From Escherichia coli (GTDB taxonomy: Bacteria > Pseudomonadota > Gammaproteobacteria > Enterobacterales > Enterobacteriaceae): a stretch of 64,000 bases of DNA. The stretch lies in NCBI RefSeq assembly GCF_036507355.1, contig NZ_AP027877.1; one strand, 5' to 3'. A program made the position numbers and the translations under genes. This document shows positions 2,458 through 58,702 of the stretch, piece by piece (positions within the stretch are counted from its first letter, which is position 1; each line of letters starts with the position of its first letter). Under the pieces are notes generated by a model that saw only the letters and a program-made list of their open reading frames with translations, had not been told where the DNA came from and did no database searches.

Positions 2458-3161
2458 TGGATTTGCCCCTATATTTCCAGACACCTGTTATCACTTAACC
2501 CATTACTGGCCCGCTGCCGCAGATATTCCCGTGGCGAGCGATAACCCAGCGCACTATGCGGATGCCATTCGTTATAATGCTCGAACGCCTCTGCAAGGTT
2601 CTTTGCTGCCGTTAACCCGTCTGGTTTGGGCATGATACTTATGTAGTCACGCTTTATCGTTTTCACGAAGCTCTCTGCTATTCCGTTACTCTCCGGACTC
2701 CGCACTGCCGTGTTCTTCGGTTCAAGTCCCAACATCCTGGCGAACTGACGTGTTTCATTCGCCCGGTAGCATGAACCATTATCCGTCAGCCACTCCACTG
2801 GAGACGCCGGAAGCTCGCTGCCAAAGCGGCGTTCCACTGCTCCCAGCATGACGTCCTGTACTGTTTCACTGTCGAAGCCACCCGTTGTGACCCCCCAGTG
2901 CAGTGCCTCACGGTCACAGCAGTCCAACGCGAACGTGACCCGCAGTTTTTCTCCGTTATCACAGCGGAACTCAAACCCGTCAGAGCACCATCGCTGATTA
3001 CTTTCTTTCACAGCCACTCTGCCGGTATGTGCCCGTTTCGATGGCGGTACAGCGGGTTTTCGCTCAAGCAACAGCGCATTCTGGCGCATGATCCGGTAAA
3101 CACGTTTGGCATTGATCGCAGGCATACCATCAAGTTCTGTTTGTCTGCGAAGCAGCGCCCA
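2458..3161 (-). mobile_element. IS2 remnant: right inverted repeat plus 3' part of orfB (IS3-family transposase), 5' portion deleted
   Basis: ORF 2469-3125 matches the IS2 OrfB C-terminal region as I remember it (...[36 protein letters not shown]...[12 protein letters not shown]); terminus TGGATTTGCCCCTATATTTCCAGACA at 2458. Similarity stops abruptly near 3161. Confidence 0.8.
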
Positions 3162-3636
3162 TAACGCAGCCCTTGCCTTACTGGTGTTTCTGGCCCTGAC
3201 CGGATTACGCCTTGGTGAAACCCGTTATCTTCTGCTTGAGGATATCGACTGGTCCCGTCAGACCATCACTTTGCGAGAAACTAAAAACGGTAAGCTTCGC
3301 TGTGTGCCAGTGGGTGATAAGGCCTTTGTTCTTCTGACTGAGCAGCGCCAGCACTTGGGCGATAAAGGCTGGGTTTTCCCCGGCTATAACACAACTAATC
3401 CGGTTGCAGAACCACGCCGTCTGCAAAAGCGTATATGTGAGAAAGCCGGTATTTCACCATTCACTATTCATGAGATGCGACACACTTTCGCCACGAAACT
3501 TATCGAGAGTGGGGCTGACATCCATACCATCAAAGATTTACTGGGCCACAGCACCATAAAGGTTACCGAGAGGTACCTACATGGCAGCCCGGTGCGCTAC
3601 CACGAGGCCATTAACAAGGCGATGGATACGTTCTAG
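3160..3636 (+). pseudogene. Tyrosine recombinase (phage-type integrase) C-terminal catalytic fragment, N-terminus missing
   Basis: ORF 3106-3636 carries integrase catalytic motifs (HEMRHTFAT, LLGHSTIKVTERYLH) but only ~160 aa; directly abuts the truncated IS2 segment. Confidence 0.7.
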
Positions 3637-3717
3637 GTATAAGCATAACTATCCACAGGCAGGTTAGTTCCTTTTTCCCTGCACGCGATTTATCTGTTTT
3701 TAATTGAGGATTAGATA

Positions 3718-5643
3718 ATGAATAACATAGTGACACCCGCCCCCTTAACGACAATGGCGCGTTTTGCCTGTTCGAAACTGAATGGATTTCTGGCTCGTCG
3801 GGCTTTGCATCAGGCAAATGCGAAGAAAATCCTTAAAAAGGCAATTGCAATCAGCATTGCGGTCGATGAGATTTCGGCAAAAGGGGGGCGTGATGGTCTG
3901 CCTGATGGGTTTGTTAACTCACCGCATGGGCTTTTTTATGATGATGGCAAAAAAGTGTTTCAGCTCAGTTCTACTGCTATTGTTCCCGTCAGCAGGCATT
4001 ATTCAGCGTGTAAGAAGCGCAATATGGGTGTCGAACTCATGACCATTAATCATGCGGGTCAGTATGTCTGCGCTGAAATTTCACTGAGCAACGTTACGCT
4101 AAACCCCGATAGTGTGATTGGCTCCCTGACAGCGCAAGGTTTCGGTATCCCTATGACGGTAAAGACGAAAGAGCTGTTGGCGCAGTTCTTACAGACATGT
4201 ATGAAGCAAGCGCTGGCTCTCCCTACCTACCTTGTCGCTGATTCAATGGGATTTGTACCCGGCAAGAAAGCGTTCTTACATGGCAATATGCCTTTAGCAC
4301 AGAACATCCCTGGGTTTGATTACCTTATTTCCGTTCAGCGTACACCCGCAGGGATCGTTGAGTCCGGCACGCTGGATGCGTGGAAGGCTCTGGTGAAAAA
4401 GAATGTCCATGGATGGCCACAGATTTTTGCATTGTGTTCTGCCTTTGCGTCCATGCTGGTTGCATTGTGTAAAATGGATGTGGCGATGTTTCACTTCTAT
4501 GGTGGGTCAACGACTGGAAAAACGATCCTTCTCCAGCTTGCGATGTCAGTTCATGGTCATGGCGGGGAGCCGGGAAGTGGAAAGCTTGTCAATGTTCTTC
4601 GCTGGAATACCACGGTGAATGCGCTAGAGAAGCGACTGAGTCAGTTCTCAGGCCTGCTGGCATGTGTGGATGAGTTGGGGGCTTATAAACAAAAGGACTT
4701 CGCTTCGCTCCTGTACAACATTACCGCCGGTCAGGGTAAAAGCAGAATGGACAAGAATCTGGATATACGTGAGCTTTATACATGGGAAATGTTAATTCTC
4801 TCCGCAGGTGAAATGTCCATTTCTGAGAAGCTAGCGACGGAAAAAGAACATCTTCAGGGTGGACAGGAACATCGCGCCATTAGCCTCAATGTTTTGCCTG
4901 AAGATGCCCGTAAAGACGGCGAATCATCAGAAAGGGTACGCTGCCGCGCTGATAGTCTGAAAAATGGCCTGAGTGAAGTTTATGGTACGGCGGGTAAGGA
5001 ATTTATTGCTAATTTGCTGGCACTGGATAATGACGATGATGAACCGCAGTCCTGGGATGAAATGTGCCTGTCTATTCAGGGGGCAGTAGAAGAACAACGT
5101 GACAGTCTTGTCGGTGAGCTGCAGGAAGAAGGTTATGCACTTAGTGACATTCAGCTGCGTGCATTAAAACGATTTTCCCTATGTTTGTGTGCCGGAATCC
5201 TGGCAGCATCATGGAATATCCTTCCGTTCAGTGAAGATATTATTAAGGGTGCGGTAATGAGCGCGGCTCGTCGCTGGCTGGATGATAAACCAAACCAGTA
5301 TAGCCCACTAAAGCAGGTGCTTACGGCTATCCAGCACGATCTTCTCACAACCAGAGCGTCCCATTTAATGCCGTTGCTTGATGAGGATGCGCATACCCCA
5401 TACAACCACTGGGGGTACACGGATAAGAACGATAACATGATGATTTTCGCTCCTGTTTTTGAAGGCTGGTGTGCCAAAAAAGGCATTAAACCTGCTGATG
5501 TGGCGAAAGCATTGGCAAAAAAAAATCACCTCAAACCAGAAAGTCAGGGCCACTACAAAAAACGTCCTCAGAAGGGAGTTCAGCAACCTTTTTATCTGGT
5601 TATGAATACATTTCTTGGCTGTAACATTGGCGCTGACTTTTAA
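3718..5643 (+). CDS. DUF927-like protein with P-loop NTPase (primase/helicase-like replication protein of integrative elements)
   Basis: 641-aa ORF with Walker A GGSTTGKT and Walker B-like CVDELG; architecture recalled from P4-like/integrative-element replication proteins. Confidence 0.55.
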   Translation: MNNIVTPAPLTTMARFACSKLNGFLARRALHQANAKKILKKAIAISIAVDEISAKGGRDGLPDGFVNSPHGLFYDDGKKVFQLSSTAIVPVSRHYSACKKRNMGVELMTINHAGQYVCAEISLSNVTLNPDSVIGSLTAQGFGIPMTVKTKELLAQFLQTCMKQALALPTYLVADSMGFVPGKKAFLHGNMPLAQNIPGFDYLISVQRTPAGIVESGTLDAWKALVKKNVHGWPQIFALCSAFASMLVALCKMDVAMFHFYGGSTTGKTILLQLAMSVHGHGGEPGSGKLVNVLRWNTTVNALEKRLSQFSGLLACVDELGAYKQKDFASLLYNITAGQGKSRMDKNLDIRELYTWEMLILSAGEMSISEKLATEKEHLQGGQEHRAISLNVLPEDARKDGESSERVRCRADSLKNGLSEVYGTAGKEFIANLLALDNDDDEPQSWDEMCLSIQGAVEEQRDSLVGELQEEGYALSDIQLRALKRFSLCLCAGILAASWNILPFSEDIIKGAVMSAARRWLDDKPNQYSPLKQVLTAIQHDLLTTRASHLMPLLDEDAHTPYNHWGYTDKNDNMMIFAPVFEGWCAKKGIKPADVAKALAKKNHLKPESQGHYKKRPQKGVQQPFYLVMNTFLGCNIGADF

Positions 5644-5818
5644 GAGGGAGCAGGAATAGAGATTAAATAATATAAGGTTAATTAAGATTTTCCGTGCCGT
5701 AATTTAAATTGTAGGATCCGGAAATATAATCTGAATGCTCAGAGGGCAGGTTGTGCACAAAATGGGCATTTAATTTTTTAATTATTCAACATATATATCA
5801 ACTAAAGGTAATTTTAAA

Positions 5819-6238
5819 ATGTATCATACAACTCCTGATGAATGTCCTGAGTTTCCACAGGCGATTAGTTCCGAAAATGTGGGGAAAGTAAAATTTACAC
5901 GTTACAGGCTCTTAATGACACAGGCTCAATGCAATTTTTATGGTATTCAACGAGAGATTTTTGATGGCGAATTTCCTGCTCTTAGAGCAATTGTTAAAGG
6001 TGATTTTCAAATCGAATTTTTTGTGAAATATAAGTGTAGAGGGCTGGATTACTATGGTTCTCTTGGTGATTGGCCTCATATGACAATTAGTGATGCAAAA
6101 GAAATCGCAGAGGGAGTTTTCAATAACTGCGATGACTCCCACCGTAATAACTGGGAGGGTGAAAATGATAGCGATAGTATCGAAGAAGACATGATGAGCT
6201 ATTTTGAAAATGGTATTCCATTCGGCAATAATTCATAG
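5819..6238 (+). CDS. Hypothetical small acidic protein in very AT-rich segment
   Basis: 139-aa ORF with no recognisable family; surrounding 5640-6300 is conspicuously AT-rich. Confidence 0.35.
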   Translation: MYHTTPDECPEFPQAISSENVGKVKFTRYRLLMTQAQCNFYGIQREIFDGEFPALRAIVKGDFQIEFFVKYKCRGLDYYGSLGDWPHMTISDAKEIAEGVFNNCDDSHRNNWEGENDSDSIEEDMMSYFENGIPFGNNS

Positions 6239-6335
6239 GTTTATACTGGATTTTCACGTCAGTAACGAAATCGAAATTCGCACATGAAAACATCTATATC
6301 TATGAGGTAGTTACTTATCGATAAACGACTGTGAA

Positions 6336-6364
6336 AGCAGAGGGGCGGCCCCTCTGCTTTTTTT
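6336..6364 (+). terminator. Rho-independent terminator hairpin between convergent genes
   Basis: GCAGAGGGGCGGCCCCTCTGC stem followed by a T-run. Confidence 0.5.
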
Positions 6365-6365
6365 G

Positions 6366-7553
6366 CTACAACGTATCGGGTAACTGAGCGCGGATACGTT
6401 CCGCCAGTAACTGACTGGTGTTCTGTAAGCGCTGAGGATGAAGATGTGCATAACGCTGTGAAGACTGACTGCTACGGTGCCCCAGTTGAGCCTGAACGTC
6501 ATATAGCGTACCGCCGTAGGACACGATGAGGGCGGCAACCGAATGGCGGCAGGTATGGATACACACTTCCTTGTCGAAAATTCCCGCCCGACGCACGATA
6601 CGCTGAAAGGCTTTAACCGGGTTACTCAGCGGCATTCCCTGTTTTTTACCAATAAACAACCACGGATTTCCCCGCTGCGTTGGCAGCGTTCTGATTACGT
6701 CCATCGCCAGTGAGTTAAGGTGAACAATCCGTCCATAGCCATTCTTGGTTTCAGGGAGCCACAGGGTGCGTTTAACCGGGTCAACATGCTCCCACTTTGC
6801 CAGACGCAGCTCATCGCGGCGAAGGCCGGTCAATAACAGCAGTTTGACATAGCGGGCAGCTACAGGGCTGGTATCGTTATCGGCGGAGAGAAAAATACGA
6901 CGAATTTCGTCCTCGGTAAAATAACGCTGTCGGGCGTTGTTCTCCCTGAGTAGCTGTACCACCCTTGCCGGATGAACAGAGGTCATGCTTTGCCTTCCGG
7001 CCCATGTAAAGACGGCTTTAATGAGTACGATGACACGGTTACAGGTAGCCGCTGACAGGGAAGTACTTAACGTCTGCTGAAGGCGCAGAATGCTCGCTGG
7101 TGTGATATCGCTCAGCAGCCTCTGACCAATGGCGGGACGGATATGATCGCGGTAGCGCTGAACATCCTTTCCCCAACTGCGTTTAGCGGATTTTGCCCAT
7201 GGCAGATAATGCTGATTAAAGAGTTCATCGAACGTCAGCTCCATTCTCTTGTTTTCACGCTCCTGCTTAGGGTCAGTGCCGGTGGCAAGGGAACGTTTGT
7301 GTTCTATGGCAATCTGACGGGCAAGATTGACGTCCACTTCAGGCCAGTGACCAATGGCGATGGCGCGTTTTCGTCCATGATAGAGGTAGCGGAGCAAAAA
7401 CTTTTTACGACCTTCTTTTCTGCTGACCAGACACTTGAGGCCGGAAATCTCGGTGTCGCTGTATTCGGCATCGGTGCTGCGTGCATCTGATGTGTTAGGG
7501 GGCAGTGATTTAATGAGCTGATTAGTAAAACGGAAGCGTTTGGGAGTGGACAT
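6366..7553 (-). CDS. int: P4-type tyrosine integrase
   Basis: 395-aa ORF with arm-binding-like N-terminus and catalytic R..HxxR..Y region (HTCRHSVAALIV, LGHRSSQSSQRYAHL); lies 7.3 kb from tRNA-Phe and is transcribed away from it. Confidence 0.85.
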   Translation of the reverse strand: MSTPKRFRFTNQLIKSLPPNTSDARSTDAEYSDTEISGLKCLVSRKEGRKKFLLRYLYHGRKRAIAIGHWPEVDVNLARQIAIEHKRSLATGTDPKQERENKRMELTFDELFNQHYLPWAKSAKRSWGKDVQRYRDHIRPAIGQRLLSDITPASILRLQQTLSTSLSAATCNRVIVLIKAVFTWAGRQSMTSVHPARVVQLLRENNARQRYFTEDEIRRIFLSADNDTSPVAARYVKLLLLTGLRRDELRLAKWEHVDPVKRTLWLPETKNGYGRIVHLNSLAMDVIRTLPTQRGNPWLFIGKKQGMPLSNPVKAFQRIVRRAGIFDKEVCIHTCRHSVAALIVSYGGTLYDVQAQLGHRSSQSSQRYAHLHPQRLQNTSQLLAERIRAQLPDTL

Positions 7554-7985
7554 ATAACCTCCTGTGACTGGTGTAAAGAACGTCAGGGTTGACCCATCCC
7601 CGGCACGGCGTTGTTAATGGCTAAGTTGATTTTCTGGCATGGCGAAGGGAATGCTGGTGCCACATGGTATGAATTAAGACGGGAAATGCAGAAAGAGCAG
7701 GCTTTACGGTCTGATTCTGGTCTTAAGGGAAAAGATTGCCGTTGGGGAAGAGTTCACAGAAATAATATGTGTTTCAGTCTAGAACAATTACATGCCATGA
7801 GGATCAAGAGAGTTGCCCGTATATGGCAGGTATCAAAGTTGGTTATGGATGTTGCCAAAACATAGTGGGGATGGATGTTGAAGTGCTAACTTGATGTTTT
7901 TAATGGGAAAGTGTAAATTGCGTGATGCGTTGCACTCATGTAGATAACACCATTGAAAGTATCAAATTGTTTGAAAAAAAATCAT

Positions 7986-8056
7986 CTTTGATCAACCTTA
8001 AGATTGTTTCTAGATGGTAAAATCTTCATATGGGAAAGAGCTCACTGGTAAGGAAG
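7986..8056 (+). promoter_or_regulatory. Putative promoter and RBS for the four-gene operon
   Basis: AT-rich divergent intergenic region; TTGATC ... TGGTAAAAT (extended -10-like) and AGGAAG 10 nt before the ATG at 8067. By eye only. Confidence 0.25.
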
Positions 8057-8066
8057 ACAAATCCTG

Positions 8067-9119
8067 ATGGGGATCATCGTACGAATTCTTAAAGCTAACC
8101 ATGGCGATTGCATTTTGGTGAGCCATGAAAGCGGTTCAGGCACTCTCAACTTGCTCATTGATGGGGGACCTGCGACGACATTCAGGTATGGCATTAGGCA
8201 GCGCTATTCTGGAGCATTGAGTAACGCTCTCGATGATCTGAAAGGAAAGGGGCAAAACATTGATCTGGCTATCCTGACCCACATTGATGATGATCACATA
8301 AATGGTTTTATCAAGGCATTCGAAAGTCCAAACTATCTGCGTCAGCTGGTTAAATCGATCTGGTTCAATTCTTCGAGGTTAATCACACATCATTTTAATG
8401 TGCCTGAAATTTGTGAAAATAATATTTTCTTGCAGGAAGTTTCCCCTGAAACTAGCGTTAAACAGGGGCAAGAACTTGAGGCATTACTTGATGAAATCGG
8501 ATGTGTGCGAGCACCGCTCATTATGGCAGGGCAAATCTACAAAGTAGGCCCGATTACTTTAACAGCACTTTCACCTGAACGAAGACAACTCGAACAGCTT
8601 TTGCATAAGTGGCCAACGGAAGTAAGTTCAGCTGACACTTCTTCATATGAGAATGATTATCACCGTTCATTGGACGAAATTTGGGCAGATGATAGATTTG
8701 AATCTGACTCATCTATTTATAATGGAAGCTCAATTGCATTTTTACTGGAAACAGATGACAAAAAAATGCTTTTTTTAGGAGACGCCAATGACCAAGTTGT
8801 TACAAAAAATTTAAGAGCATTGGGCTATAGCGAAACAAACAAGTTGAAGCTGGATCTGGTTAAAGTTTCGCATCATGGTAGTCAATACAACACAAGCAAC
8901 GAATTTCTTTCAATACTAGATTCTCCATGCTTTGTTATTTCAACCAATGGTTCGAAGCATGGTCTTCCTAATAAAAGGACTATTGCAAGGATCTTAAAGG
9001 AAACAGATGGTGATATTTATTTTAATTACAGCAATGTAATTACTCCGCTGCTTTTAGCGCATGAAGCTGAGAGCTATTCTTCTCGTCTAAAAGTGCTAGG
9101 TGATGAGATTAAATTCTAA
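8067..9119 (+). CDS. Metallo-beta-lactamase-fold hydrolase (putative nuclease)
   Basis: 350-aa ORF with MBL motifs in canonical order: LIDGG, THIDDDH (8278-8298), FLGDAN, VSHHGS. Confidence 0.7.
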   Translation: MGIIVRILKANHGDCILVSHESGSGTLNLLIDGGPATTFRYGIRQRYSGALSNALDDLKGKGQNIDLAILTHIDDDHINGFIKAFESPNYLRQLVKSIWFNSSRLITHHFNVPEICENNIFLQEVSPETSVKQGQELEALLDEIGCVRAPLIMAGQIYKVGPITLTALSPERRQLEQLLHKWPTEVSSADTSSYENDYHRSLDEIWADDRFESDSSIYNGSSIAFLLETDDKKMLFLGDANDQVVTKNLRALGYSETNKLKLDLVKVSHHGSQYNTSNEFLSILDSPCFVISTNGSKHGLPNKRTIARILKETDGDIYFNYSNVITPLLLAHEAESYSSRLKVLGDEIKF

Positions 9120-10419
9120 CATGACAGTTTACGAAATAATGCAGTCCCACTGCGTCATGGTTAATGGTGGCAGTGGTGTGCTAGTTAATGCAATGACACT
9201 GGATTACACATATGTACTGACTGCATACCATGTTATTCGTGACACTCTCGATAATATCGAAGTTACCGATCACAGTGGCAATAAACTTACAGTATTAGCT
9301 GTGCTCCTATATCCAGATATTAAATATTTGAACGAATCCCATAATGATTTCGCAATTTTAAAAATTGAATATCAACCAGAAGTTGCACAAAGTTGTTTTA
9401 CTGCTTCGACGTTGCCTCCTCGTGCTGAGCTTACATTAGTAGGATTTCCAAACACTGAAAGAAGGAGTTCGGATCCTATAAAATATTATGATGGACATAT
9501 GACTAGCGTGGTCGATGAGCTTGTCATTTTCACTGTTGATGGTGTACCAGGCTTAGCCACGATAAAGGGGATGTCAGGTGGAGGTGTATATCACATAGTT
9601 GGTAGAAATACATTTCTTGTTGGTGTTGAGTTTAGGATGGATGGCACTGAAGAGGAACAACAGTTTGGCCGAGTGCAATGCCATAGCTTAGCAAAGTTTG
9701 ATGAAATAATAAGAGCATACGATAGCGCACCGATGATTCCTGCCCATTTGGAATGCTTTTCTCGAATACAAGACAAAATATTTAAATTTAATGTTATTGA
9801 TCAAAACAATGTTCGTAATCTTAAAGATGCGTTAGAAGCCCTTTCCAGATCACTTATAGCTAGTGGGATGTCTCCGCCTTACAAAATCATGGGGCAATAT
9901 GGATTACAGCTTTTGATGGATCCCAAAACTCCTAATGAGCTCAGTAATAAAGAGTTATGGATTTCTTATTTTGAATTTTTAGTTATTTGCTCTGTGATAG
10001 ATAATGTTGGAATTGTGGATGATGCATATATAAAAAGCTTGGAGCGAAAGCGGCGGCTATTATATACCAGTAATGGTGCGAACTGGATTAGCCATTTGGA
10101 AGAACTACTCAAAACGGCACGAAAACTTTTAGATAAGGATGGCACTTTAATCGTTGCATCACCTGATGCTGCTGCAAGTGTCTTGCCTCCGAACTTTCGA
10201 CTTAAAAACGTAATAAGTAATATAGCGGTAGTGCCAAACCAGGGGCCGTTTGCTATCGATGAAGTTGAAAGTTCTATTTATACAAGCTTCAAATTAACTC
10301 ATCTGGAGGGACTCCGCAAAAGCTGCGTAATAGACCGTGAGGATGAATATCTAGTAGTTCCAGCAGGTGTACCACAATTGCAGTTATTTAAGGAGAAGCT
10401 TAATGAAATTATTAAGTAA
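9100..10419 (+). CDS. Trypsin-like serine protease domain fused to a ~250-aa C-terminal domain of unknown function
   Basis: His (LTAYHVI), Asp (NDFAILK), Ser (GMSGGGVY) in S1 order in the first ~170 aa. Start ambiguous (GTG 9100, ATG 9103 or ATG 9121); overlaps or abuts the upstream stop. Confidence 0.7.
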   Translation: MMRLNSNMTVYEIMQSHCVMVNGGSGVLVNAMTLDYTYVLTAYHVIRDTLDNIEVTDHSGNKLTVLAVLLYPDIKYLNESHNDFAILKIEYQPEVAQSCFTASTLPPRAELTLVGFPNTERRSSDPIKYYDGHMTSVVDELVIFTVDGVPGLATIKGMSGGGVYHIVGRNTFLVGVEFRMDGTEEEQQFGRVQCHSLAKFDEIIRAYDSAPMIPAHLECFSRIQDKIFKFNVIDQNNVRNLKDALEALSRSLIASGMSPPYKIMGQYGLQLLMDPKTPNELSNKELWISYFEFLVICSVIDNVGIVDDAYIKSLERKRRLLYTSNGANWISHLEELLKTARKLLDKDGTLIVASPDAAASVLPPNFRLKNVISNIAVVPNQGPFAIDEVESSIYTSFKLTHLEGLRKSCVIDREDEYLVVPAGVPQLQLFKEKLNEIIK

Positions 10420-10942
10420 GGAAGTCGATCTGAGTATTTTAAGTGTGAAATATGATAAAATCAGATTTCACATGTATTGCTCAGATGATCCACTTTCATT
10501 TATTTCCTGTATAGTATGTGTATGTGAGACTTCAGCCGATATTTTGGAGAATTGGCGTACTATTCAAAATGTGGTTTCTGTTCACTATCAACCATCGGGT
10601 GACTTAGCATCTTGGAATATGTATATTGTTTTTTTTACAACTGATGTTTTTCCTGTATGGGAAAAATATGAAATAGAAAACAATAAGTTTGCTGCTCGCA
10701 AGATAATTATTGATAAATTCTCAGGTGCCCCCACCTCTGCTCAGTTAGTTACTGAGTTGCAAAAATATTTGTTGGGAACAGACTTAAGACTTGATCCGCG
10801 AGTCAATGAGTCAAAAGAGGCTTTATTGTCTTTAGATAAATACGTTCGTGGTGCTCCATTAGATTCAAAGAATGAGTCCAGAGAAATCCGCGCCTCCATG
10901 GTCAATGAAATAATTAAATTTTTGAACAAAAATGAAAATTAA
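10403..10942 (+). CDS. Small protein of unknown function (possible adaptor component)
   Basis: 179-aa ORF from ATG 10403 with AGGAG upstream; overlaps previous gene end by 17 nt and next gene start by 11 nt. Confidence 0.55.
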   Translation: MKLLSKEVDLSILSVKYDKIRFHMYCSDDPLSFISCIVCVCETSADILENWRTIQNVVSVHYQPSGDLASWNMYIVFFTTDVFPVWEKYEIENNKFAARKIIIDKFSGAPTSAQLVTELQKYLLGTDLRLDPRVNESKEALLSLDKYVRGAPLDSKNESREIRASMVNEIIKFLNKNEN

Positions 10943-13900
10943 AAAAGTTGAGATTGAAGCATTTCGTGCCTACAAATCTAGGTCAGATGGCACGTTTGAT
11001 TTCACGAATGATGGAGATGTTGCTGCAAATTTTGTTGCGATCTATGCTCCGAATGGTTTTGGTAAAAGCTCCTTCTACGATGCTGTTGAATGGGCAATTA
11101 CCAATCACATGGCAAGACTTGGCGGAGAATATAATAAAGCTAATTATGAGAACGCTGCCAAAATCACCAAGGACGATAATGTTGGGCAAGAAATTTTACG
11201 TAATAAATATGTAGATAAAAATATACGCACAAAGGTAGTGGTATCAACCACTCGACCACTCCCTTTTGAGCGTAAACTACCCAAAGTCAGATCTAATGGG
11301 CGTGATTTGCGATTCGGAGATAATAGTCAAAGAGAAAATGATTTTTTCCGACAAGTGATTCTAAGTCAAGATGAAATTGATAGATTTCTCCGAGAAGCCA
11401 AACCGCAAGAGCGCTATACGAAATTTATGGAAAGTTTCGGTGGAGATATTGAAATTGCCCGTAAAGAGCTGTCAGTACTTATAAATGATAATAAGATTGA
11501 GTTGAATAATCTCAATAAAAAGAGAGAATCTATTCTTGAACAATTAAAACAACCAATAGATTCTTCAATTTTCCAAAAATTCAATTCTATTGCTGTTGAA
11601 TTGAATAAGTTGGGTGAAAATATTCAATTACCTGACGAGAGTTTTTCATCTCAAGATGAATATGCTCTTAATGTTAGTCTTATATCGCGACGCCATGAAC
11701 TCGACTCATCACGTTTAACGAACAATCGAACGGTAGAAGCACTGGAAGACAGGCTTCTAAAAATATCTGAAACTGAATTACATGTCCGCAGTTTAGCAGA
11801 ACAGAATTTACATCTTGCTAAATTAGTGAAAGGAGTGGCCGACGCTGATAGGTACCAATCACTTTTGGATTCATACGAAAAATGTGCAGAAGATCAGAAA
11901 ACCACACACATGCATATGACTCGTATTATAGAAGTGATTGATTGCCTTGATGATTTTCTAAAAATTGAGTCTCATCTTCTTGAGTTGTCTACTAGCCAAA
12001 AGATAATTTCTGAAGAACGCACCAAGATCTGTGCGCAGCTTGCAGGTTTTGAAACAACAATTAATCAATTGAATAAGGAGCTTAAGGCTGTAGATGATAG
12101 GGTCGCTATACTTAGGAAGACCGTTGATAACGCCGGGCAAGTATATTTGGAGCTCGCAAATAACCGGGCTCGGGTAAGTAACCTAACACAGCAAATATCA
12201 AAAAAAGAAGTTTCTATTAAGATAGATAAATCTAGGCTTGGGGAGTTGAATCGTGAGTTGACTAGACTTTCTGAACTCAATATTAATGCCACCTCATTAT
12301 CAAACGGAAATCTAGGGACCTTACTTTTAGAACCTACGAAAGTTGAGCAGCTGACGAGATGTTACGCCGAGTTTGATGTGATTGAATCACAAATTCAAGC
12401 TGTGCATGTTACTCAAAAAGCATTATCTGAACAGATGGAATTGCATGAACGACTGATTGCCATTGGAATTGACTATCTTAGTGTACGACCATCCAGTATC
12501 TGTCCTTTATGTACAGCTCCTCACCCATCTGCGGACGGTTTACTGGATAAAATTAAAGGGCGGAACCTTTTATCAGAATTAAGTGAGGAGAATTCTAAAC
12601 AGCTTTTATTTTTCTCTACACGTCAGAAAGAAATTCTTCAATCAATTCAGGATATTACTCAGTGCGCAATTGATTCAAAGGCTCAGTTGATTATTAACTT
12701 AAACAAGGAATTGAGTGAGACTGACGAGAGACTTACTCTTGCAGGTAGAGATATATATTCAATAGAAGCAGAGTTAAAGACTCTTGAGAAACGGACCACA
12801 GAGTTAGAAAGTTTAGTTTGGGCACTTTCACATGATGAACTGGTATCCCGAATTGAAAAAGAAATTGGTGAGCTTTCAATCAAAAGTTCAAAGCTCCTAG
12901 AAGGAAAAGCATTAATTACCCCTCAGGTTGAAATGCTTAATGAATCACTCAAAGAAAAAGACTCTGCGCAGCAAAAAATAGCTTCGGAGTTGGAAGGTAT
13001 CTTTAGCGGAAATATCTACATTACAGTTTATAAATACTTAAATGAAAATGCGATTTCGTCTTCATCCCTCAAAAGTCATACTGAAAAAAGGAAACTAGAG
13101 ATTGAGGCTGAAATAATTAAGTGTAAAACCACTATTGAGTTTTTGACTGAACAATGTGCTGTTTTACAGCAAAAAATGTTAAGTGATGGTATGTGGGTGG
13201 ATTTTGTTCAGTTGAAGCTGCAAAAAGAATCTTTAGAAATAAGTGTTGCCCGCTCTCAATCAGTAATTAACACGTTTTATGAGAGTTTATCTAACCTTAT
13301 AATTATCCGTCCTGAGTACAGTCTTGAAAAAGTCAAAGAGCTCATAGCTGCGAAAGTTCAGGATTGCCATCTTCGTACGAAAGAATTTGATAGGCTCTCA
13401 AATAATATTAATTTACTCATAGAACTTATGAGTTCGTTTAAGCCATATATTAAACATACAGCTCTTCAGAAAGATTTAATGGCTGAAGAGATGTTAATAA
13501 AACAGCGTGAACGGGTCGACACTACTTTAACCGCAGAAAGAGATGCAATAGTGGATAGCCTGAAACTTCTTATCAATAATTTCTTCTATGAAGATCTTAT
13601 TAATTCTATTTATAAGAAGATAGATCCGCATCCTGCCTTTAAAAAAGTAGAGTTTAAGGCTGACTTTGATTCTGATAAGCCAGGCCTAAATATTGTGGTT
13701 AGTGATGAGGTTGGAGAGCAAATCTCGCCAATACTTTATTTCAGTGCGGCTCAAACGAATATTCTAAGCTTAAGTGTCTTTTTAGCTAGTGCACTTCATG
13801 CGAAAGACGATGAGGGTAATCCCATCAATGTTGTTATGATTGATGACCCAATTCAGTCAATGGATTCGATTAATATACTCTCTACGATAGATCTTTTAAG

Positions 13901-14063
13901 AAGTATATGTGTTCAATTTGATAAACAAATTATTATTTCAACGCATGATGAAAACTTCTTTGCCTTACTCCAGCGCAAAATCCCTGCCCAAATTTTTGGA
14001 TCTAAATTCTTGCAATTGGAAAAGTTTGGTGTAGTCGTCCCGGTGCAACCCTTTGTGAACTAA
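10932..14063 (+). CDS. SbcC/Rad50-like ABC ATPase with long coiled coil and central CxxC zinc hook
   Basis: 1043 aa: Walker A NGFGKSS (Lys codon 11064-11066), Q-loop ILSQDE, CPLC at 12501-12512 (residues 524-527, mid-protein), signature-like FSAAQ, Walker B VVMIDDP, H-loop STHDE. The middle ~600 aa are heptad-rich and Leu/Glu/Lys-rich. Confidence 0.8.
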   Translation: MKIKKVEIEAFRAYKSRSDGTFDFTNDGDVAANFVAIYAPNGFGKSSFYDAVEWAITNHMARLGGEYNKANYENAAKITKDDNVGQEILRNKYVDKNIRTKVVVSTTRPLPFERKLPKVRSNGRDLRFGDNSQRENDFFRQVILSQDEIDRFLREAKPQERYTKFMESFGGDIEIARKELSVLINDNKIELNNLNKKRESILEQLKQPIDSSIFQKFNSIAVELNKLGENIQLPDESFSSQDEYALNVSLISRRHELDSSRLTNNRTVEALEDRLLKISETELHVRSLAEQNLHLAKLVKGVADADRYQSLLDSYEKCAEDQKTTHMHMTRIIEVIDCLDDFLKIESHLLELSTSQKIISEERTKICAQLAGFETTINQLNKELKAVDDRVAILRKTVDNAGQVYLELANNRARVSNLTQQISKKEVSIKIDKSRLGELNRELTRLSELNINATSLSNGNLGTLLLEPTKVEQLTRCYAEFDVIESQIQAVHVTQKALSEQMELHERLIAIGIDYLSVRPSSICPLCTAPHPSADGLLDKIKGRNLLSELSEENSKQLLFFSTRQKEILQSIQDITQCAIDSKAQLIINLNKELSETDERLTLAGRDIYSIEAELKTLEKRTTELESLVWALSHDELVSRIEKEIGELSIKSSKLLEGKALITPQVEMLNESLKEKDSAQQKIASELEGIFSGNIYITVYKYLNENAISSSSLKSHTEKRKLEIEAEIIKCKTTIEFLTEQCAVLQQKMLSDGMWVDFVQLKLQKESLEISVARSQSVINTFYESLSNLIIIRPEYSLEKVKELIAAKVQDCHLRTKEFDRLSNNINLLIELMSSFKPYIKHTALQKDLMAEEMLIKQRERVDTTLTAERDAIVDSLKLLINNFFYEDLINSIYKKIDPHPAFKKVEFKADFDSDKPGLNIVVSDEVGEQISPILYFSAAQTNILSLSVFLASALHAKDDEGNPINVVMIDDPIQSMDSINILSTIDLLRSICVQFDKQIIISTHDENFFALLQRKIPAQIFGSKFLQLEKFGVVVPVQPFVN

Positions 14064-14559
14064 AGTGCTTGCACTGCCTCTAAACAATCTGCATGCACAT
14101 CTCGTTGACTAAATTTGAAACGAGATGTGCATTGCTCGTTATAAAAATAAGGCATGTTCTAATTATCCAATCCCCATCAGTATAAGTGGGTGGATAGATA
14201 TATTTGGCCCCTTTAACAGATATGTTAATTTCCACTTTTCGCTTACAGTGGACCTGCAGCTCAGTAACTTACTCACTTTGTGCTAGGAACGGGCATTGCT
14301 AATAGTCAGAGTGTATGACCTGCTCATCGTTGATTAAGGACAGCGCTGTACTGGTTCGTTGAACCCACGGCTCACAACGGACACTCAGGTTATTATTCCA
14401 ATACGTTTAGCTCAAGTAGTATTACTACGGATAAATCATTTTATGATGGCGTGGAGAACGGGGGGATTCTGAAAATGGTAAGAAGTGAAAGGGCAAGAAG
14501 AGCTTGTTGCAGGTGGACGGACTGGTGAAGATTCCCATCTGGAGGGTGTATGCTGCCAA

Positions 14560-14730
14560 GTTTCCCCGCTTGCTATTGGGGATTTCCCCACCTTATTCCC
14601 CGCGACAAAATCATGTTAAGACCAGCGGATTAAGGAGAAATGATAATTCCCCCGTTTTCCCCGTATTTTCTACTTCATTATGAATGATCTGAGAGAAAGG
14701 AACCGTAGAGGACCGTAGAAAGACCGTAGC
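14560..14730. repeat. Clustered short direct repeats (five TTCCCC motifs at 14561-14663; three ACCGTAG repeats at 14702-14729, ~10-11 bp phasing)
   Basis: Read directly from the sequence in the 840-bp non-coding stretch between the operon and tRNA-Phe. Confidence 0.4.
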
Positions 14731-14899
14731 AGTGAGGTTAGGAAAAGGTACATCAGAGGATGTTGAGGTGTCTAAAAGTAACGAACATCTGCGAAAATGG
14801 CGAGAAATCCAGCAAACAAATAACGTGTTGCAACGACCAGAAATCTACCGTAGCCAAGAAAGGAAAAAGCCCCGCTTTGCAGCGAGGCCTTATGAATAT

Positions 14900-14975
14900 T
14901 GGTGCCCGGACTCGGAATCGAACCAAGGACACGGGGATTTTCAATCCCCTGCTCTACCGACTGAGCTATCCGGGC
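14900..14975 (-). tRNA. pheV: tRNA-Phe (GAA anticodon)
   Basis: Reverse complement reads GCCCGGATAGCTCAGTCGGTAGAGCAGGGGATTGAAAATCCCCGTGTCCTTGGTTCGATTCCGAGTCCGGGCACCA, the E. coli tRNA-Phe as I remember it; position next to yqgA-speC indicates pheV. Confidence 0.95.
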
Positions 14976-15080: not shown

Positions 15081-15790
15081 TCAGGCAAACCAGGCGGTCC
15101 AGGTGGCGGAAAGCGGCATTGCCAGAAGGAGTGCTGGAAGCATGTTGACCACCGGGAACATTTTAATGCCACAGATGCGTAATCCGGTTGCCAGCAGCAA
15201 TAAACCGCCTACGGCGCTGAAGTCTGCCATCATCGACGGTGTGGTCAGCGGTAATATCAGCGCGGCAGCCCACGCCAGCGTTAACTGGATGATCAGTAAT
15301 GGGATACTAATTACCGACACCGCAATACCCAGCGAGCAGGCGAAGATCATCGCCGTAAAGAAATCAAGAAATGACTTGGCGATTAAAATACTCGGATCGC
15401 CGGTCATCCCTTCGTTCATCGCCCCGAAGATCCCGGTGCCGCTGGCGCAAAACAGGACAATAATCGCGACATAATTCTGAATAAAAGATTCATGCGCTGG
15501 CTTCTTACGTGAGTGACGAAACAGATTTTGTGCTTTGGCGACCGCTGTATTGACGCCTTTCTCCAGCAGACAAATTTCGCCGATTAATGCTCCGAGTAAG
15601 GTTGCTAAAACCATCGCCGGAAGGTTGGCGCATTTCACCACCAGTAAAATACCAATCCCCAGCGATGCCAGACCAAAAATAGATGTCATGGAGACGCGCG
15701 GATACGTTCCGGTAAGCGTTGGCTGAGCAGTGCGCCGAGAACGCCACCCAGTAATACTGCACTAGCGTTGATAAAAGGGCCGATGACCAC
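15081..15790 (-). pseudogene. yqgA: DUF554 inner-membrane protein, apparently frameshifted near codon 33
   Basis: 202-aa ORF (15081-15689). The 101 nt upstream (15690-15790, GTG start) encode a hydrophobic N-terminus in another frame ending in a stop. 33+202 = 235 aa, the length I recall for YqgA. Confidence 0.55.
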
Positions 15791-16187
15791 AAGAGTTCCT
15801 GTTAACTGTATTGTTTGATTTTCTTATTATGAACTTTTTGCCTTGTTGATGGCTTGTCTGGTCGCAAAGTCCTGGCTTGCACGCTTTAGCGAAAGGTGCC
15901 ATGATTGCGCGAATTTTCTCCTCTCTGTACGGAGTTTGCCCGATGCACGCCACCTCCTTACATTCTCTCGCTTATCGCCGCTTCGCGCGAAACTCTTCTC
16001 TTTTTATGCTACTGCTCATGCGGTGAAGTTAGCGCACGCTCACTGCAGGACAACAGTAAAATCAGAGCGTTTCTGCTTTTACTGATGTCTGGCGGTCGGA
16101 GCTGGTGACCAGTTTGACCCATATCTCATGGGGCAGGGTTTTCCACCTTGTCCGGTATTCTTACTTCCCCGAAACGGGTTTGCGCTT

Positions 16188-18323
16188 ATGAAATCAATGA
16201 ATATTGCCGCCAGTAGTGAACTGGTATCCCGACTTTCTACTCATCGCCGCGTGGTGGCGTTGGGAGATACTGATTTTACGGACGTCGCGGCAGTCGTCAT
16301 TACCGCTGCGGATAGTCGCAGTGGCATTCTTACGTTGCTTAAGCGCACCGGTTTTCATCTACCGGTGTTTTTGTATTCCGAACATGCTGTTGAATTACCT
16401 GCGGGCGTTACGGCGGTAATCAACGGCAACGAGCAGCATTGGCTGGAGCTGGAATCCGCAGCCTGTCAGTATGAAGAGAATTTGCTGCCACCGTTTTATG
16501 ACACGCTGACACAGTACGTTGAGATGGGCAACAGCACCTTTGCTTGCCCTGGGCATCAACATGGTGCGTTTTTTAAAAAGCATCCTGCCGGACGCCATTT
16601 TTACGATTTCTTTGGTAAGAACGTCTTTCGCGCCGATATGTGTAATGCTGACGTAAAATTGGGCGATCTGCTTATTCATGAAGGATCGGCGAAAGATGCG
16701 CAGAAATTCGCAGCCAAAGTCTTTCATGCCGATAAAACCTATTTTGTGCTGAACGGCACATCGGCAGCGAATAAAGTGGTGACGAATGCGCTGTTAACGC
16801 GTGGCGATCTGGTGCTCTTCGACCGTAACAACCATAAGTCGAATCATCACGGCGCGTTGATTCAGGCGGGGGCGACGCCGGTCTATCTGGAAGCTTCACG
16901 TAACCCGTTTGGTTTCATTGGCGGTATTGATGCGCACTGTTTTAATGAAGAGTATCTGCGCCAGCAAATTCGCGACGTTGCGCCAGAAAAAGCCGACCTG
17001 CCGCGCCCGTTTCGCCTGGCGATTATTCAGCTGGGAACCTATGACGGCACTGTCTATAACGCCCGTCAGGTGATCGATACCATTGGGCATCTGTGTGATT
17101 ACATTCTGTTTGATTCCGCGTGGGTCGGTTATGAACAATTTATCCCGATGATGGCAGATAGCTCGCCGCTGCTGTTAGAACTTAACGAAAACGATCCGGG
17201 GATTTTTGTGACCCAGTCGGTGCACAAACAGCAGGCTGGACTCTCACAGACGTCGCAGATCCATAAAAAAGATAACCATATCCGCGGACAGGCGCGTTTT
17301 TGCCCGCATAAGCGGTTGAATAACGCCTTTATGCTCCATGCTTCTACCAGCCCTTTCTATCCGCTGTTTGCTGCACTGGATGTTAACGCCAAAATTCATG
17401 AAGGGGAGAGTGGGCGTCGGCTGTGGGCTGAGTGCGTTGAGTTGGGTATTGAGTCGCGCAAGGCTATTCTTGCGCGCTGTAAGCTGTTCCGCCCGTTTAT
17501 CCCGCCCGTTGTTGATGGCAAATTGTGGCAGGATTATCCGACATCAGTGTTAGCCAGCGACCGCCGTTTTTTCAGTTTTGAGCCGGGGGCGAAGTGGCAC
17601 GGCTTTGAAGGATATGCCGCGGATCAGTATTTTGTTGATCCGTGCAAGCTGTTACTCACTACACCAGGTATCGATGCCGAAACCGGCGAATATAGCGACT
17701 TTGGCGTTCCGGCGACGATTCTGGCGCACTATCTGCGTGAGAACGGCATTGTGCCGGAGAAGTGCGATCTCAACTCCATTCTGTTCTTATTAACTCCGGC
17801 GGAAAGCCACGAGAAGCTGGCACAACTGGTGGCGATGCTGGCGCAATTTGAACAGCATATTGAGGATGACTCGCCGCTGGTTGAGGTGTTGCCGAGCGTT
17901 TATAACAAATATCCGGTGCGCTATCGCGACTACACCCTGCGCCAGTTGTGTCAGGAGATGCACGATCTGTATGTCAGTTTCGACGTCAAAGACCTACAAA
18001 AAGCGATGTTCCGCCAGCAGAGTTTCCCGTCAGTGGTGATGAACCCCCAGGATGCGCATAGCGCTTATATTCGCGGTGACGTGGAGTTGGTGCGGATTCG
18101 TGATGCCGAAGGGCGAATTGCGGCAGAAGGGGCGTTGCCTTATCCACCTGGCGTGCTTTGCGTGGTACCCGGGGAAGTCTGGGGTGGGGCGGTTCAACGT
18201 TATTTCCTTGCGCTGGAAGAAGGGGTGAATTTGTTGCCGGGATTTTCGCCGGAGCTGCAAGGTGTTTATAGCGAAACCGATGCGGATGGCATGAAACGGT
18301 TGTACGGTTATGTGTTGAAGTAA
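16188..18323 (+). CDS. speC: Ornithine decarboxylase, constitutive
   Basis: 711 aa from MKSMNIAASSELVSRL...; protein sequence recognised. Confidence 0.95.
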   Translation: MKSMNIAASSELVSRLSTHRRVVALGDTDFTDVAAVVITAADSRSGILTLLKRTGFHLPVFLYSEHAVELPAGVTAVINGNEQHWLELESAACQYEENLLPPFYDTLTQYVEMGNSTFACPGHQHGAFFKKHPAGRHFYDFFGKNVFRADMCNADVKLGDLLIHEGSAKDAQKFAAKVFHADKTYFVLNGTSAANKVVTNALLTRGDLVLFDRNNHKSNHHGALIQAGATPVYLEASRNPFGFIGGIDAHCFNEEYLRQQIRDVAPEKADLPRPFRLAIIQLGTYDGTVYNARQVIDTIGHLCDYILFDSAWVGYEQFIPMMADSSPLLLELNENDPGIFVTQSVHKQQAGLSQTSQIHKKDNHIRGQARFCPHKRLNNAFMLHASTSPFYPLFAALDVNAKIHEGESGRRLWAECVELGIESRKAILARCKLFRPFIPPVVDGKLWQDYPTSVLASDRRFFSFEPGAKWHGFEGYAADQYFVDPCKLLLTTPGIDAETGEYSDFGVPATILAHYLRENGIVPEKCDLNSILFLLTPAESHEKLAQLVAMLAQFEQHIEDDSPLVEVLPSVYNKYPVRYRDYTLRQLCQEMHDLYVSFDVKDLQKAMFRQQSFPSVVMNPQDAHSAYIRGDVELVRIRDAEGRIAAEGALPYPPGVLCVVPGEVWGGAVQRYFLALEEGVNLLPGFSPELQGVYSETDADGMKRLYGYVLK

Positions 18324-43793: not shown

Positions 43794-44714
43794 ATGAGCA
43801 CCTTAGGTCATCAATACGATAACTCACTGGTTTCCAACGCCTTTGGTTTTTTACGCCTGCCGATGAACTTCCAGCCGTATGACAGCGATGCCGACTGGGT
43901 GATCACCGGCGTGCCGTTCGACATGGCCACCTCTGGCCGTGCCGGTGGTCGTCACGGCCCGGCGGCGATTCGCCAGGTTTCGACTAACCTGGCCTGGGAA
44001 CACAACCGCTTCCCGTGGAATTTCGACATGCGCGAGCGTCTGAACGTGGTGGACTGCGGCGATCTGGTATATGCCTTCGGCGATGCCCGTGAGATGAGCG
44101 AAAAACTGCAGGCACACGCCGAGAAGCTGCTGGCTGCCGGTAAGCGTATGCTCTCCTTCGGTGGTGACCACTTTGTTACGCTGCCGCTGCTGCGTGCTCA
44201 TGCGAAGCATTTCGGCAAAATGGCGCTGGTACACTTTGACGCCCACACCGATACCTACGCGAACGGTTGTGAATTTGACCACGGCACCATGTTCTATACC
44301 GCGCCGAAAGAAGGTCTGATCGACCCGAATCATTCCGTGCAGATTGGTATTCGTACCGAATTTGATAAAGACAACGGCTTTACCGTGCTGGACGCCTGCC
44401 AGGTGAACGATCGCAGCGTGGATGACGTTATCGCCCAGGTGAAACAAATTGTGGGTGATATGCCGGTTTACCTGACCTTTGATATCGACTGCCTGGATCC
44501 TGCATTTGCGCCGGGAACCGGTACGCCGGTAATTGGCGGTCTGACCTCCGATCGCGCTATTAAACTGGTACGCGGCCTGAAAGATCTCAACATCGTTGGG
44601 ATGGACGTAGTGGAAGTGGCTCCGGCATACGATCAGTCGGAAATCACCGCTCTGGCAGCGGCAACGCTGGCGCTGGAAATGCTGTATATTCAGGCGGCGA
44701 AAAAGGGCGAGTAA
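43794..44714 (+). CDS. speB: Agmatinase
   Basis: 306 aa [26 protein letters not shown]...; sequence recognised. Confidence 0.95.
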
Positions 44715-44753: not shown

Positions 44754-46007
<1,254 letters not shown>

Positions 46008-55376: not shown

Positions 55377-56086
55377 AAATTGAATTAACGGTGAATGGGC
55401 TGAACGTGCAAGCGCAGTACCATGATGAAGAGATAGAACGCGTGCATAAACCGTTGCTGCGTATGCTGGCGGCCTTACAGACGGTAAATCCGCAGCGCCG
55501 AACCGTGGTTTTTCTTTGCGCTCCGCCGGGGACGGGTAAATCTACCCTAACCACCTTCTGGGAATATCTCGCGCAACAAGACCCGGAGCTGCCCGCTATT
55601 CAGACGCTCCCGATGGATGGTTTTCACCATTACAATAGCTGGCTGGATGCGCATCAATTGCGCCCCTTCAAAGGCGCACCAGAGACATTTGACGTTGCGA
55701 AACTGGCGGAAAATCTGCGCCAGGTCGTGGAAGGGGATTGTACGTGGCCGCAGTACGATCGACAAAAGCATGATCCTGTTGAAGATGCGTTGCACGTTAC
55801 CGCACCACTCGTCATCGTCGAAGGAAACTGGTTGTTGCTGGACGACGAGAAGTGGTGCCAGCTTGCGCAATTTTGTGATTTCTCGATCTTTATCAATGCG
55901 CCAGCTACTGCGTTGCGGGAACGACTGGTGGGGCGCAAGCTGGCGGGAGGGTTATCGCTGGCAGACGCAGAAGCTTTTTATGACCGTACCGACGGGCCGA
56001 ATGTTCGCCGGGTGCTGGAAGAGAGTCTGCCTGCTAATTTGACTTTAATGATGACCGCTACGGGTGAATATCGTCTGGTTGATTAA
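55373..56086 (+). CDS. yggC: P-loop nucleoside/sugar kinase-like protein
   Basis: 237 aa with Walker A PPGTGKST. Confidence 0.85.
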   Translation: MKIELTVNGLNVQAQYHDEEIERVHKPLLRMLAALQTVNPQRRTVVFLCAPPGTGKSTLTTFWEYLAQQDPELPAIQTLPMDGFHHYNSWLDAHQLRPFKGAPETFDVAKLAENLRQVVEGDCTWPQYDRQKHDPVEDALHVTAPLVIVEGNWLLLDDEKWCQLAQFCDFSIFINAPATALRERLVGRKLAGGLSLADAEAFYDRTDGPNVRRVLEESLPANLTLMMTATGEYRLVD

Positions 56087-56768
56087 CGTTCCTGATTAGA
56101 CCATCTTCCAGTCGCACCACACGAGAGAAATGACGCCGGGTAAATGCGGCGTCATGACTGATTGCTACGACGCTCGTGCCTCGCTGGCGGCACTTCTCCA
56201 GCCAGCTTTCAAACACGCTCAACCAATTTTCGTCAAAATCCCGACTCGGCTCGTCCAGCAGCAATAGTGGCGGAGAGAGTGCTTCCAGGCAGGCGACGGC
56301 GACCATCCGTCGCTGCGCACTATGCAGATCCAACGGATGCGCGCTGGCAGTGTCTGCTAACTGACAACATTGCAGGGCAGCATGGGTACGTTGAGTGATT
56401 TCATCCGCCGGGCATTTTTGCAGTTTCAAACCAAATGCGATCTCGTCGGCGACGGTGCTATGAAAAAGCTGGTTTTCCGCTTCCTGAAACAGTACGCCAA
56501 TCTTTGCCGCGCGCTGGCGGTTTTTCAGGTTTTTCATCGCCTGTTGTTGCAGCATAACCGTACCGGCTGTGGGCGTAAGAAGACCTGCCATTACTCGTAA
56601 CAGCGTCGATTTCCCTGCGCCATTGTCGCCGGTCAGCGCCAACCATTCACCTTGTTTGAGTTGCAGAGAAATGTCGCAAAGACAATCCGTTGCCGCGCCA
56701 GGCCAGCGATAAGATATCTGATTTAACGTTAACATAGTGGCTGGAGTGCTCCGTTTTGCAATTGCCAC
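56058..56768 (-). CDS. ABC ATPase (ECF-type energising component, second NBD)
   Basis: Walker A GDNGAGKST and Walker B LLLDEP; start may be the internal Met at 56735. Confidence 0.65.
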   Translation of the reverse strand: MAIAKRSTPATMLTLNQISYRWPGAATDCLCDISLQLKQGEWLALTGDNGAGKSTLLRVMAGLLTPTAGTVMLQQQAMKNLKNRQRAAKIGVLFQEAENQLFHSTVADEIAFGLKLQKCPADEITQRTHAALQCCQLADTASAHPLDLHSAQRRMVAVACLEALSPPLLLLDEPSRDFDENWLSVFESWLEKCRQRGTSVVAISHDAAFTRRHFSRVVRLEDGLIRNVNQPDDIHP

Positions 56769-57412
56769 GCTTGCTGGCAGTAGTTCAGGAAAGGTGTGCG
56801 ATGACGTTCAAAAAGAATAATCAGCGAACCACGTTCAAACGCCCAGTGTTGTAAGCGCTGCAACAGCATTTCGCTGGCCTGCGGCGTCAGGCGGCTAAAG
56901 GCTTCATCAAGAATTAATAGCTTTGGCTGCATCGCGATGGCGCAGGCGATGACCACGCGCTGTGTCTCTCCACCGGAGAGTGTTGCCGGGTGACGATGGC
57001 GCAACGGCTGGCACTCGGTCAGAGTCAGGGCGGCATCAATCCGCGCCATAATCTCTGCTTCAGCAAGACACAGATTTTCTGGCCCAAAGGCAACTTCTTC
57101 TTCCACGCTAAAGGTACAGCCGGAGAGCTGCAAATAAGGCGATTGCTGGACGAGCTGGATGGTGGCGGATTGTTCATTAAGCGGGAGATGCCCAATGGGC
57201 GTACCGAGGAGCGTCCCCGTGCCTGTTATCTCTCCTGGCAGAAAGTCCGGATACCAGCCCGCCATCAGCTGTGCCAGCGTACTTTTGCCACTGCCGTTGT
57301 CACCAAAGATGGCGACCATCCCCGGTTTGACATAGTGAAAGTCATAACAGAACGGAGGATGCGTTGAGTGTGTCGGGCAATAACGGAACTGTTCTAACGT
57401 AACCATATCCAC
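56729..57412 (-). CDS. ABC ATPase (ECF-type energising component, first NBD)
   Basis: Walker A GDNGSGKST, signature LSGGETQR, Walker B LILDEA; overlaps the next NBD ORF in another frame. Confidence 0.65.
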   Translation of the reverse strand: MDMVTLEQFRYCPTHSTHPPFCYDFHYVKPGMVAIFGDNGSGKSTLAQLMAGWYPDFLPGEITGTGTLLGTPIGHLPLNEQSATIQLVQQSPYLQLSGCTFSVEEEVAFGPENLCLAEAEIMARIDAALTLTECQPLRHRHPATLSGGETQRVVIACAIAMQPKLLILDEAFSRLTPQASEMLLQRLQHWAFERGSLIILFERHRTPFLNYCQQAWQLQNGALQPLC

Positions 57413-58680: not shown

Positions 58681-58702
58681 AAGAAAACCTCTCTGAAAGT
58701 AG

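Follow-up and report, generated by a model that had tools for sequence, protein, structure and literature searches.

The yqgA locus

This report concerns yqgA, a gene encoding an inner-membrane protein of the DUF554 family, in a stretch of Escherichia coli DNA of 64,000 nucleotides (nt) taken from contig NZ_AP027877.1 of assembly GCF_036507355.1 and referred to below as the window. The gene is located between speC, which is accompanied by the small open reading frame (ORF) yqgH, and the tRNA-Phe gene pheV. The order speC-yqgH-yqgA-pheV is the same in the window, in K-12 and in YZ22MPE54 (NZ_CP139337.1), the nearest complete genome. An uninterrupted yqgA ORF of about 235 amino acids (aa) including the N-terminal helix was not found in the window; the gene is split into an ORF of 34 aa and an ORF of 202 aa (Table 1). 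The 34-aa ORF contains native residues 1-31, that is, helix 1 and a loop, followed by an out-of-frame Ala-Ser-Pro and a TGA. The 202-aa product is on deposit as BED20978.1 and is labelled 'DUF554 domain-containing protein'.

Both pieces were recognised by the Pfam profile of DUF554 (PF04474). The 202-aa piece was matched with an E-value of 8e-56 over profile positions 33-219, and the 34-aa piece with 25.2 bits (cut-off 25.1) over profile positions 1-30. Since the profile matches the two pieces in consecutive order, the two ORFs are parts of one gene and not a chance pair. An exact look-up of the 34-aa fragment in a gene-position collection returned no match, a null result that is uninformative because gene callers seldom call ORFs as short as this one.

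Insertion of a CG unit at codons 31/32

Pairwise alignment with K-12 yqgA, to which the window copy is about 97% identical at the nucleotide level, revealed a single indel, ATCCGCGTCTCC in K-12 against ATCCGCGCGTCTCC in the window, corresponding to a +2 insertion. In K-12 (MC4100) the gene is annotated as encoding 235 aa from the same GTG start, and its Met34 is the ATG at 15689 of the window. The disrupted gene measures 710 nt, against 708 nt for intact alleles, and the insertion places a premature stop at codon 35. Removal of one CG yields a full 235-aa ORF that is identical to K-12 YqgA except for A229T. The same change from CGCG to CGCGCG is found relative to YZ22MPE54, whose yqgA is intact. 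A 901-nt region containing yqgA was found to be present in 5,421 of the 5,426 complete E. coli genomes, and among the matches listed every counterpart spans 899 nt and is annotated as yqgA. As judged from these alignments, the reading frame of yqgA in the window is disrupted relative to that of intact orthologs.

The initial annotation, which had been made from the sequence alone, described yqgA as split by a frameshift 33 codons into the gene. The frameshift is borne out by the K-12 alignment as a single +2 indel, but the lesion is at codons 31/32. The CGCGCG run suspected at the time is indeed the site of the insertion. The reported distance of 101 nt between GTG and ATG is exact (15790 to 15690), as is the sum of 33 and 202 residues, which gives the 235 aa of K-12 YqgA. 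A stop described as lying just before the ATG is present there, but overlaps the ATG as ATGA. The possibility that reference yqgA itself starts at the ATG at 15689 was found not to apply, since the annotation of K-12 and of more than 5,400 genomes gives the 235-aa form, starting at the GTG.

Mutation or assembly artefact

Two causes had been left open by the initial annotation, namely, a real pseudogene and a base-call error. In the latter case a spurious CG would have been introduced into a GC-rich run and the true genome would carry an intact yqgA. The position of the lesion within a short repeat is consistent with such an error, as are the lack of the allele among the 4,762 complete genomes and the metagenomes described below and the fact that the insertion is known from assembled sequence. 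However, an identical CGCGCG insertion was found in two further assemblies, namely the draft assembly GCA_905398635.1 (L002) and the Logan assembly of SRR17480487 (L003). Over 3.7 kb, L003 and the window are 100% identical. L002 matches the window exactly from pheV through nupG and diverges directly beyond pheV, where it carries an integrase-bearing island different from that of the window; it therefore represents another strain, belonging to the core lineage of the window. In addition, the exact 202-aa product is recorded as BED20978.1, from a contig of 4.64 Mb, and occurs on a few further contigs. Three other deposits that come from different pipelines thus share the insertion: a draft assembly in ENA, a Logan assembly of an SRA run and a protein record in DDBJ. 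One of them is from a distinguishable strain.

The coding sequence elsewhere in the window was found to be free of indel noise. In a comparison with YZ22MPE54 over about 50 kb, the CG insertion was the only net frameshifting indel inside coding sequence. The remaining indels are either intergenic or balanced alignment artefacts in a divergent allele of yggC; 14 one-base 'indels' clustered at 55855-56008 are balanced and reflect the divergent 3' part of this allele, not errors. The lack of any other coding frameshift in this comparison excludes an indel-noisy assembly. General decay of the genome was likewise ruled out: transposase genes of the IS4 and IS110 families are present, yet no other coding sequence in the approximately 50 kb is frameshifted.

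On the strength of these sequence comparisons, the CG insertion is a genuine mutation in the DNA of the organism and not an assembly artefact. A sequencing or assembly error is regarded as very unlikely. Of the two causes first considered, the base-call error is disfavoured by the identical insertion in the independent assemblies L002 and L003, and the real pseudogene is supported by the same insertion together with the clean comparison over about 50 kb.

Rarity of the split allele

The distribution of the split allele was assessed with a site probe of 81 nt, centred on the CG tract and compared with complete E. coli genomes. The allele was found in none of the 4,762 genomes matched by the probe, the best match being 79/81, which corresponds to a 2-nt gap. 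A 25-mer specific for the split allele, CGTATCCGCGCGTCTCCATGACATC, was found in no metagenome contig; this null result is informative because the wild-type 23-mer used as a control was found in 87 metagenome contigs. In the core region, no complete RefSeq genome exceeded about 99% identity to the window. The split allele is rare and restricted to one lineage.

This distribution also bears on the idea of a deliberate frameshift, in which either full-length YqgA is restored by programmed ribosomal frameshifting or hopping, or the gene is turned on and off by a phase-variable dinucleotide repeat. With regard to recoding, CGC recurs at offset +2 in CGCGCG, and the native frame would be recovered exactly if tRNA-Arg re-paired at +2. 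However, neither a slippery heptamer nor a homopolymer run is found at the site. A single in-frame heptamer exists (C CCU UUU, codons 4-6), and it meets a TAG three codons on in the target frame. The frameshifted arrangement, occurring in 0 of 4,762 genomes, is not a conserved recoding signal. Nothing suggests +2 re-pairing of tRNA-Arg above background. With no slippery site at the lesion and no conservation among orthologs, yqgA was not classed as a case of programmed ribosomal frameshifting.

With regard to phase variation, the point in favour is that the lesion changes the number of repeat units. However, typical phase-variable dinucleotide tracts are far longer than three units. The tract here has three units, against two in all other genomes examined and in the 87 metagenome contigs. 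Because the tract is too short and its length is not polymorphic beyond this allele, the locus was also not classed as phase-variable. A deliberate frameshift of either type is considered extremely improbable.

Age of the lesion

The age of the lesion was examined by comparing the repaired allele, from which one CG had been removed, with 70 intact natural alleles of 708 nt (50 distinct). The repaired allele was found to have one private substitution, G685A, which is the A229T change. At 15 further sites it has the minority state; every one of these differences is synonymous and occurs in intact alleles as well. This pattern of one private change and otherwise shared synonymous differences indicates that the history of the allele has been dominated by purifying selection, and that the frameshift is recent and without secondary decay. 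An old pseudogene was ruled out on the same grounds, as all differences but one are shared synonymous polymorphisms. The yqgA of the window is most likely a young pseudogene in which no further damage has accumulated yet.

Consequence for YqgA

What would the break mean for the protein? The length of 235 aa is conserved in YqgA across Escherichia, Citrobacter, Salmonella, Kluyvera and Klebsiella. Distant relatives (31-55% identity) align from residues 1-3, and the N-terminus is kept in family members at 31-100% identity. In an alignment of 91 sequences, four residues are invariant, among them G19, and conservation is at least 90% at G4 and G15; all three glycines are within the detached 34-aa peptide. 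In a confident AlphaFold2 model of YqgA (predicted local distance difference test 95.6, predicted template modelling score 0.89), residues 4-22 form helix 1 and residues 28-50 form helix 2. Since helix 2 begins at residue 28 in the model, the break is predicted to cut into the first turns of this helix and not into a free loop.

Translation of the 3' piece was also considered. The internal ATG lacks Shine-Dalgarno complementarity: its pairing energy is +0.4 kcal/mol, whereas that of the native GTG is −4.3 kcal/mol. For anti-Shine-Dalgarno pairing, 78% of the positions within the gene are equal to or better than this ATG. Without a Shine-Dalgarno sequence, independent initiation at the internal ATG is unlikely, and only termination-reinitiation at the ATGA could express the 202-aa ORF.

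A course of events may be proposed as follows. The CG unit would have been duplicated in the short CGCG run, most likely through replication slippage, and the duplication would have moved the frame by +2 downstream of codon 31. Ribosomes starting at the native GTG would then make a 34-aa peptide, composed of transmembrane helix 1 and Ala-Ser-Pro, and terminate at the TGA. The remaining 202 codons would stay open from native Met34 without a ribosome-binding site of their own, and would at best be weakly translated by reinitiation at the ATGA. The most likely outcome predicted from the sequence and the structure model is that YqgA function is lost or severely reduced.

Conversely, the gene may be split but working, if both pieces are made through reinitiation at the ATGA and assemble in the membrane as a functional two-piece YqgA. 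The stop of the 34-aa ORF overlaps the ATG of native Met34, and the two pieces jointly hold all native residues but V32 and S33. Both ORFs are undamaged, and the allele persists in at least two strains with differing pheV islands. If real, a two-piece YqgA would be a modest natural case of a membrane protein that withstands being divided at the boundary between helix 1 and helix 2, and a co-assembling, transporter-like protein would account for the persistence of the allele, without further decay, in more than one strain. However, reinitiation would be inefficient with no Shine-Dalgarno sequence before the ATG, and in the model helix 2 loses its start through the break, which does not fall in a free loop. 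Among more than 2,500 relatives, no natural two-gene arrangement of DUF554 was found, and the shorter matches look like fragments. The intact state of both ORFs is equally accounted for by a recent lesion. A working two-piece YqgA is thus judged improbable.

Overall, yqgA, a core gene of E. coli, very probably carries in the window a frameshift that is real, recent, inactivating and restricted to one lineage. Several points weigh against this conclusion. The support for the insertion comes from assembled sequences; L003 is possibly the same isolate as the window, which leaves L002 as the sole surely independent strain. Both ORFs are intact, and the ATGA overlap would permit termination-reinitiation. 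The loss of function is predicted from sequence and a structure model, and one private substitution since divergence gives no statistical power for detecting relaxed selection.

Surroundings of yqgA in the window

The features of the locus and of its surroundings are listed in Table 1. The tRNA gene pheV follows yqgA directly. A polar effect of the frameshift on pheV was considered and is unlikely, as pheV has its own promoter-like element and is followed by a terminator. By eye, the promoter-like sequence TTGACG-17-TTTAAT is found in the 105-nt spacer between yqgA and pheV; a simple promoter scan, whose rule demands A at position 2 of the -10 hexamer, did not call it.

Table 1. Positions of the two yqgA pieces, associated signals and neighbouring features in the window
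Feature	Position	Strand	Remarks
yqgA, disrupted (DUF554 family inner-membrane protein gene)	15081..15790	minus	K-12 alignment, Pfam DUF554 on both pieces, synteny
AGGA, Shine-Dalgarno-like	15797..15800	minus	6 nt 5' of native GTG; anti-Shine-Dalgarno duplex −4.3 kcal/mol
5' fragment ORF, 34 aa, MVIGPFINASAVLLGGVLGALLSQRLPERIRASP	15686..15790	minus	GTG at 15790 to TGA at 15688-15686
(CG)3 tract, +2 insertion site	15695..15700	minus	Codons 31/32; (CG)2 in every intact allele examined
ATGA overlap	15686..15689	minus	TGA of 34-aa ORF shares bases with ATG (native Met34) of 202-aa ORF
3' fragment ORF, 202 aa	15081..15689	minus	ATG at 15689-15687; native residues 34-235 with A229T
tRNA-Phe (GAA), pheV	14900..14975	minus	ARAGORN; directly downstream of yqgA; intact; island integration site
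Terminator-like hairpin	14891-14866		After pheV
yqgH small ORF	15943-16026	plus	Intact, in yqgA-speC spacer
speC	16128-18323	plus	Mechanical ORF of 731 aa from upstream ATG; annotated start in relatives 16188 (16188-18323, 711 aa)
LRAT-domain (NlpC/P60-like acyltransferase) ORF, 211 aa	454-1089	minus	Far end of island region
IS3-family integrase-core ORF	2469-3125	minus	
pheV island	3161-14900		Two tyrosine recombinases, DUF927 protein, ComEC/Rec2-like protein, two 'ABC-three component system' proteins and the AAA ATPase below; candidate anti-phage defence cassette
AAA ATPase, 1043 aa	10932-14063		In pheV island
IS4-family transposase gene	37405-38733	minus	Between galP and metK; absent from YZ22MPE54
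0.94-kb insertion	42781-43717		Between speA and speB; absent from YZ22MPE54
ORF, 243 aa	42927-43658	plus	In speA-speB insertion
IS110-family transposase gene	44978-45958	plus	Between speB and loiP; absent from YZ22MPE54
SPFH/Band 7 family ORF, 302 aa	49446-50354	minus	Between tkt and cmtB; segment absent from YZ22MPE54
yggC 3' end	55855-56008		Highly divergent allele; adjoins ECF-type cluster
ECF-type transporter cluster	56058-58779	minus	Between yggC and epd; two ABC ATPases, CbiQ-like T component, S component; absent from YZ22MPE54

The pheV island of the window differs from that of YZ22MPE54 by about 8 mismatches in 11.7 kb, and the flanking core is approximately 1% divergent. A near-identical island amid a core of this divergence indicates recent horizontal transfer of the island. 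The 243-aa protein encoded between speA and speB gave no match in Pfam or NCBIfam. Of 5,426 complete E. coli genomes, 3,550 contain at least 80% of a 1.1-kb probe covering this segment (42700-43800), and in them the ORF is annotated as 'hypothetical protein'. This ORF is a common accessory gene without assigned function.

Comparison with known systems

According to the summary in PMC8882828, yqgA is up-regulated in urine biofilms and is reportedly involved in biofilm formation (Hancock & Klemm 2007). This role in urine biofilms is the only functional note found for yqgA, the phenotype reported being a reduced formation of biofilm in urine, and the protein is essentially uncharacterised. A PDB sequence search with YqgA found no relative of solved structure. 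A fold like that of the ZIP (Zrt/Irt-like) metal transporters was considered as a possibility for DUF554.

Other lesions of yqgA in E. coli were collected from proteins P0060, P0089, P0093, P0106 and P0107 and from locus L082. In-frame deletions of 23-25 aa give forms of 212 and 210 aa, which occur on as many as 23 contigs; a form of 203 aa with 114 member sequences results from a C-terminal frameshift; and one metagenomic allele has an internal stop. The occurrence of independent lesions in other lineages indicates that the gene is dispensable and sporadically lost. The 212-, 210- and 203-aa forms resemble the split allele in being independent disruptions of a dispensable gene, but their positions and mechanisms differ, and none is at the CGCG run. 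In comparison with yqgA of K-12 (b2966, PF04474, 235 aa), the locus is the same and the protein is the same except for A229T, whereas the window copy has the +2 CG split, which no complete RefSeq E. coli genome examined shares.

The split allele is similar to the slippage frameshift pseudogenes of enterobacteria in its gain of one unit, its early stop, the undecayed state of the gene and its restriction to a single lineage. Its only oddity in relation to these is that the new stop overlaps a native in-frame Met codon as ATGA, which is a coincidence. Translationally coupled gene pairs joined by ATGA have the same geometry of stop and start as the junction in yqgA. However, the junction here is accidental, lies within one gene, is without a Shine-Dalgarno sequence and is not conserved; the likeness is in sequence geometry alone.

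What does the split allele mean? It is an ordinary, most likely gene-inactivating mutation of little importance beyond correct annotation: BED20978.1 is the 3' part of a frameshifted gene and not an ordinary protein, and its annotation should be corrected as such. The CG insertion is usable as a clean two-base marker of one rare E. coli lineage. In addition, the split allele adds to the evidence that yqgA, although near-universal in E. coli, can be lost in nature.
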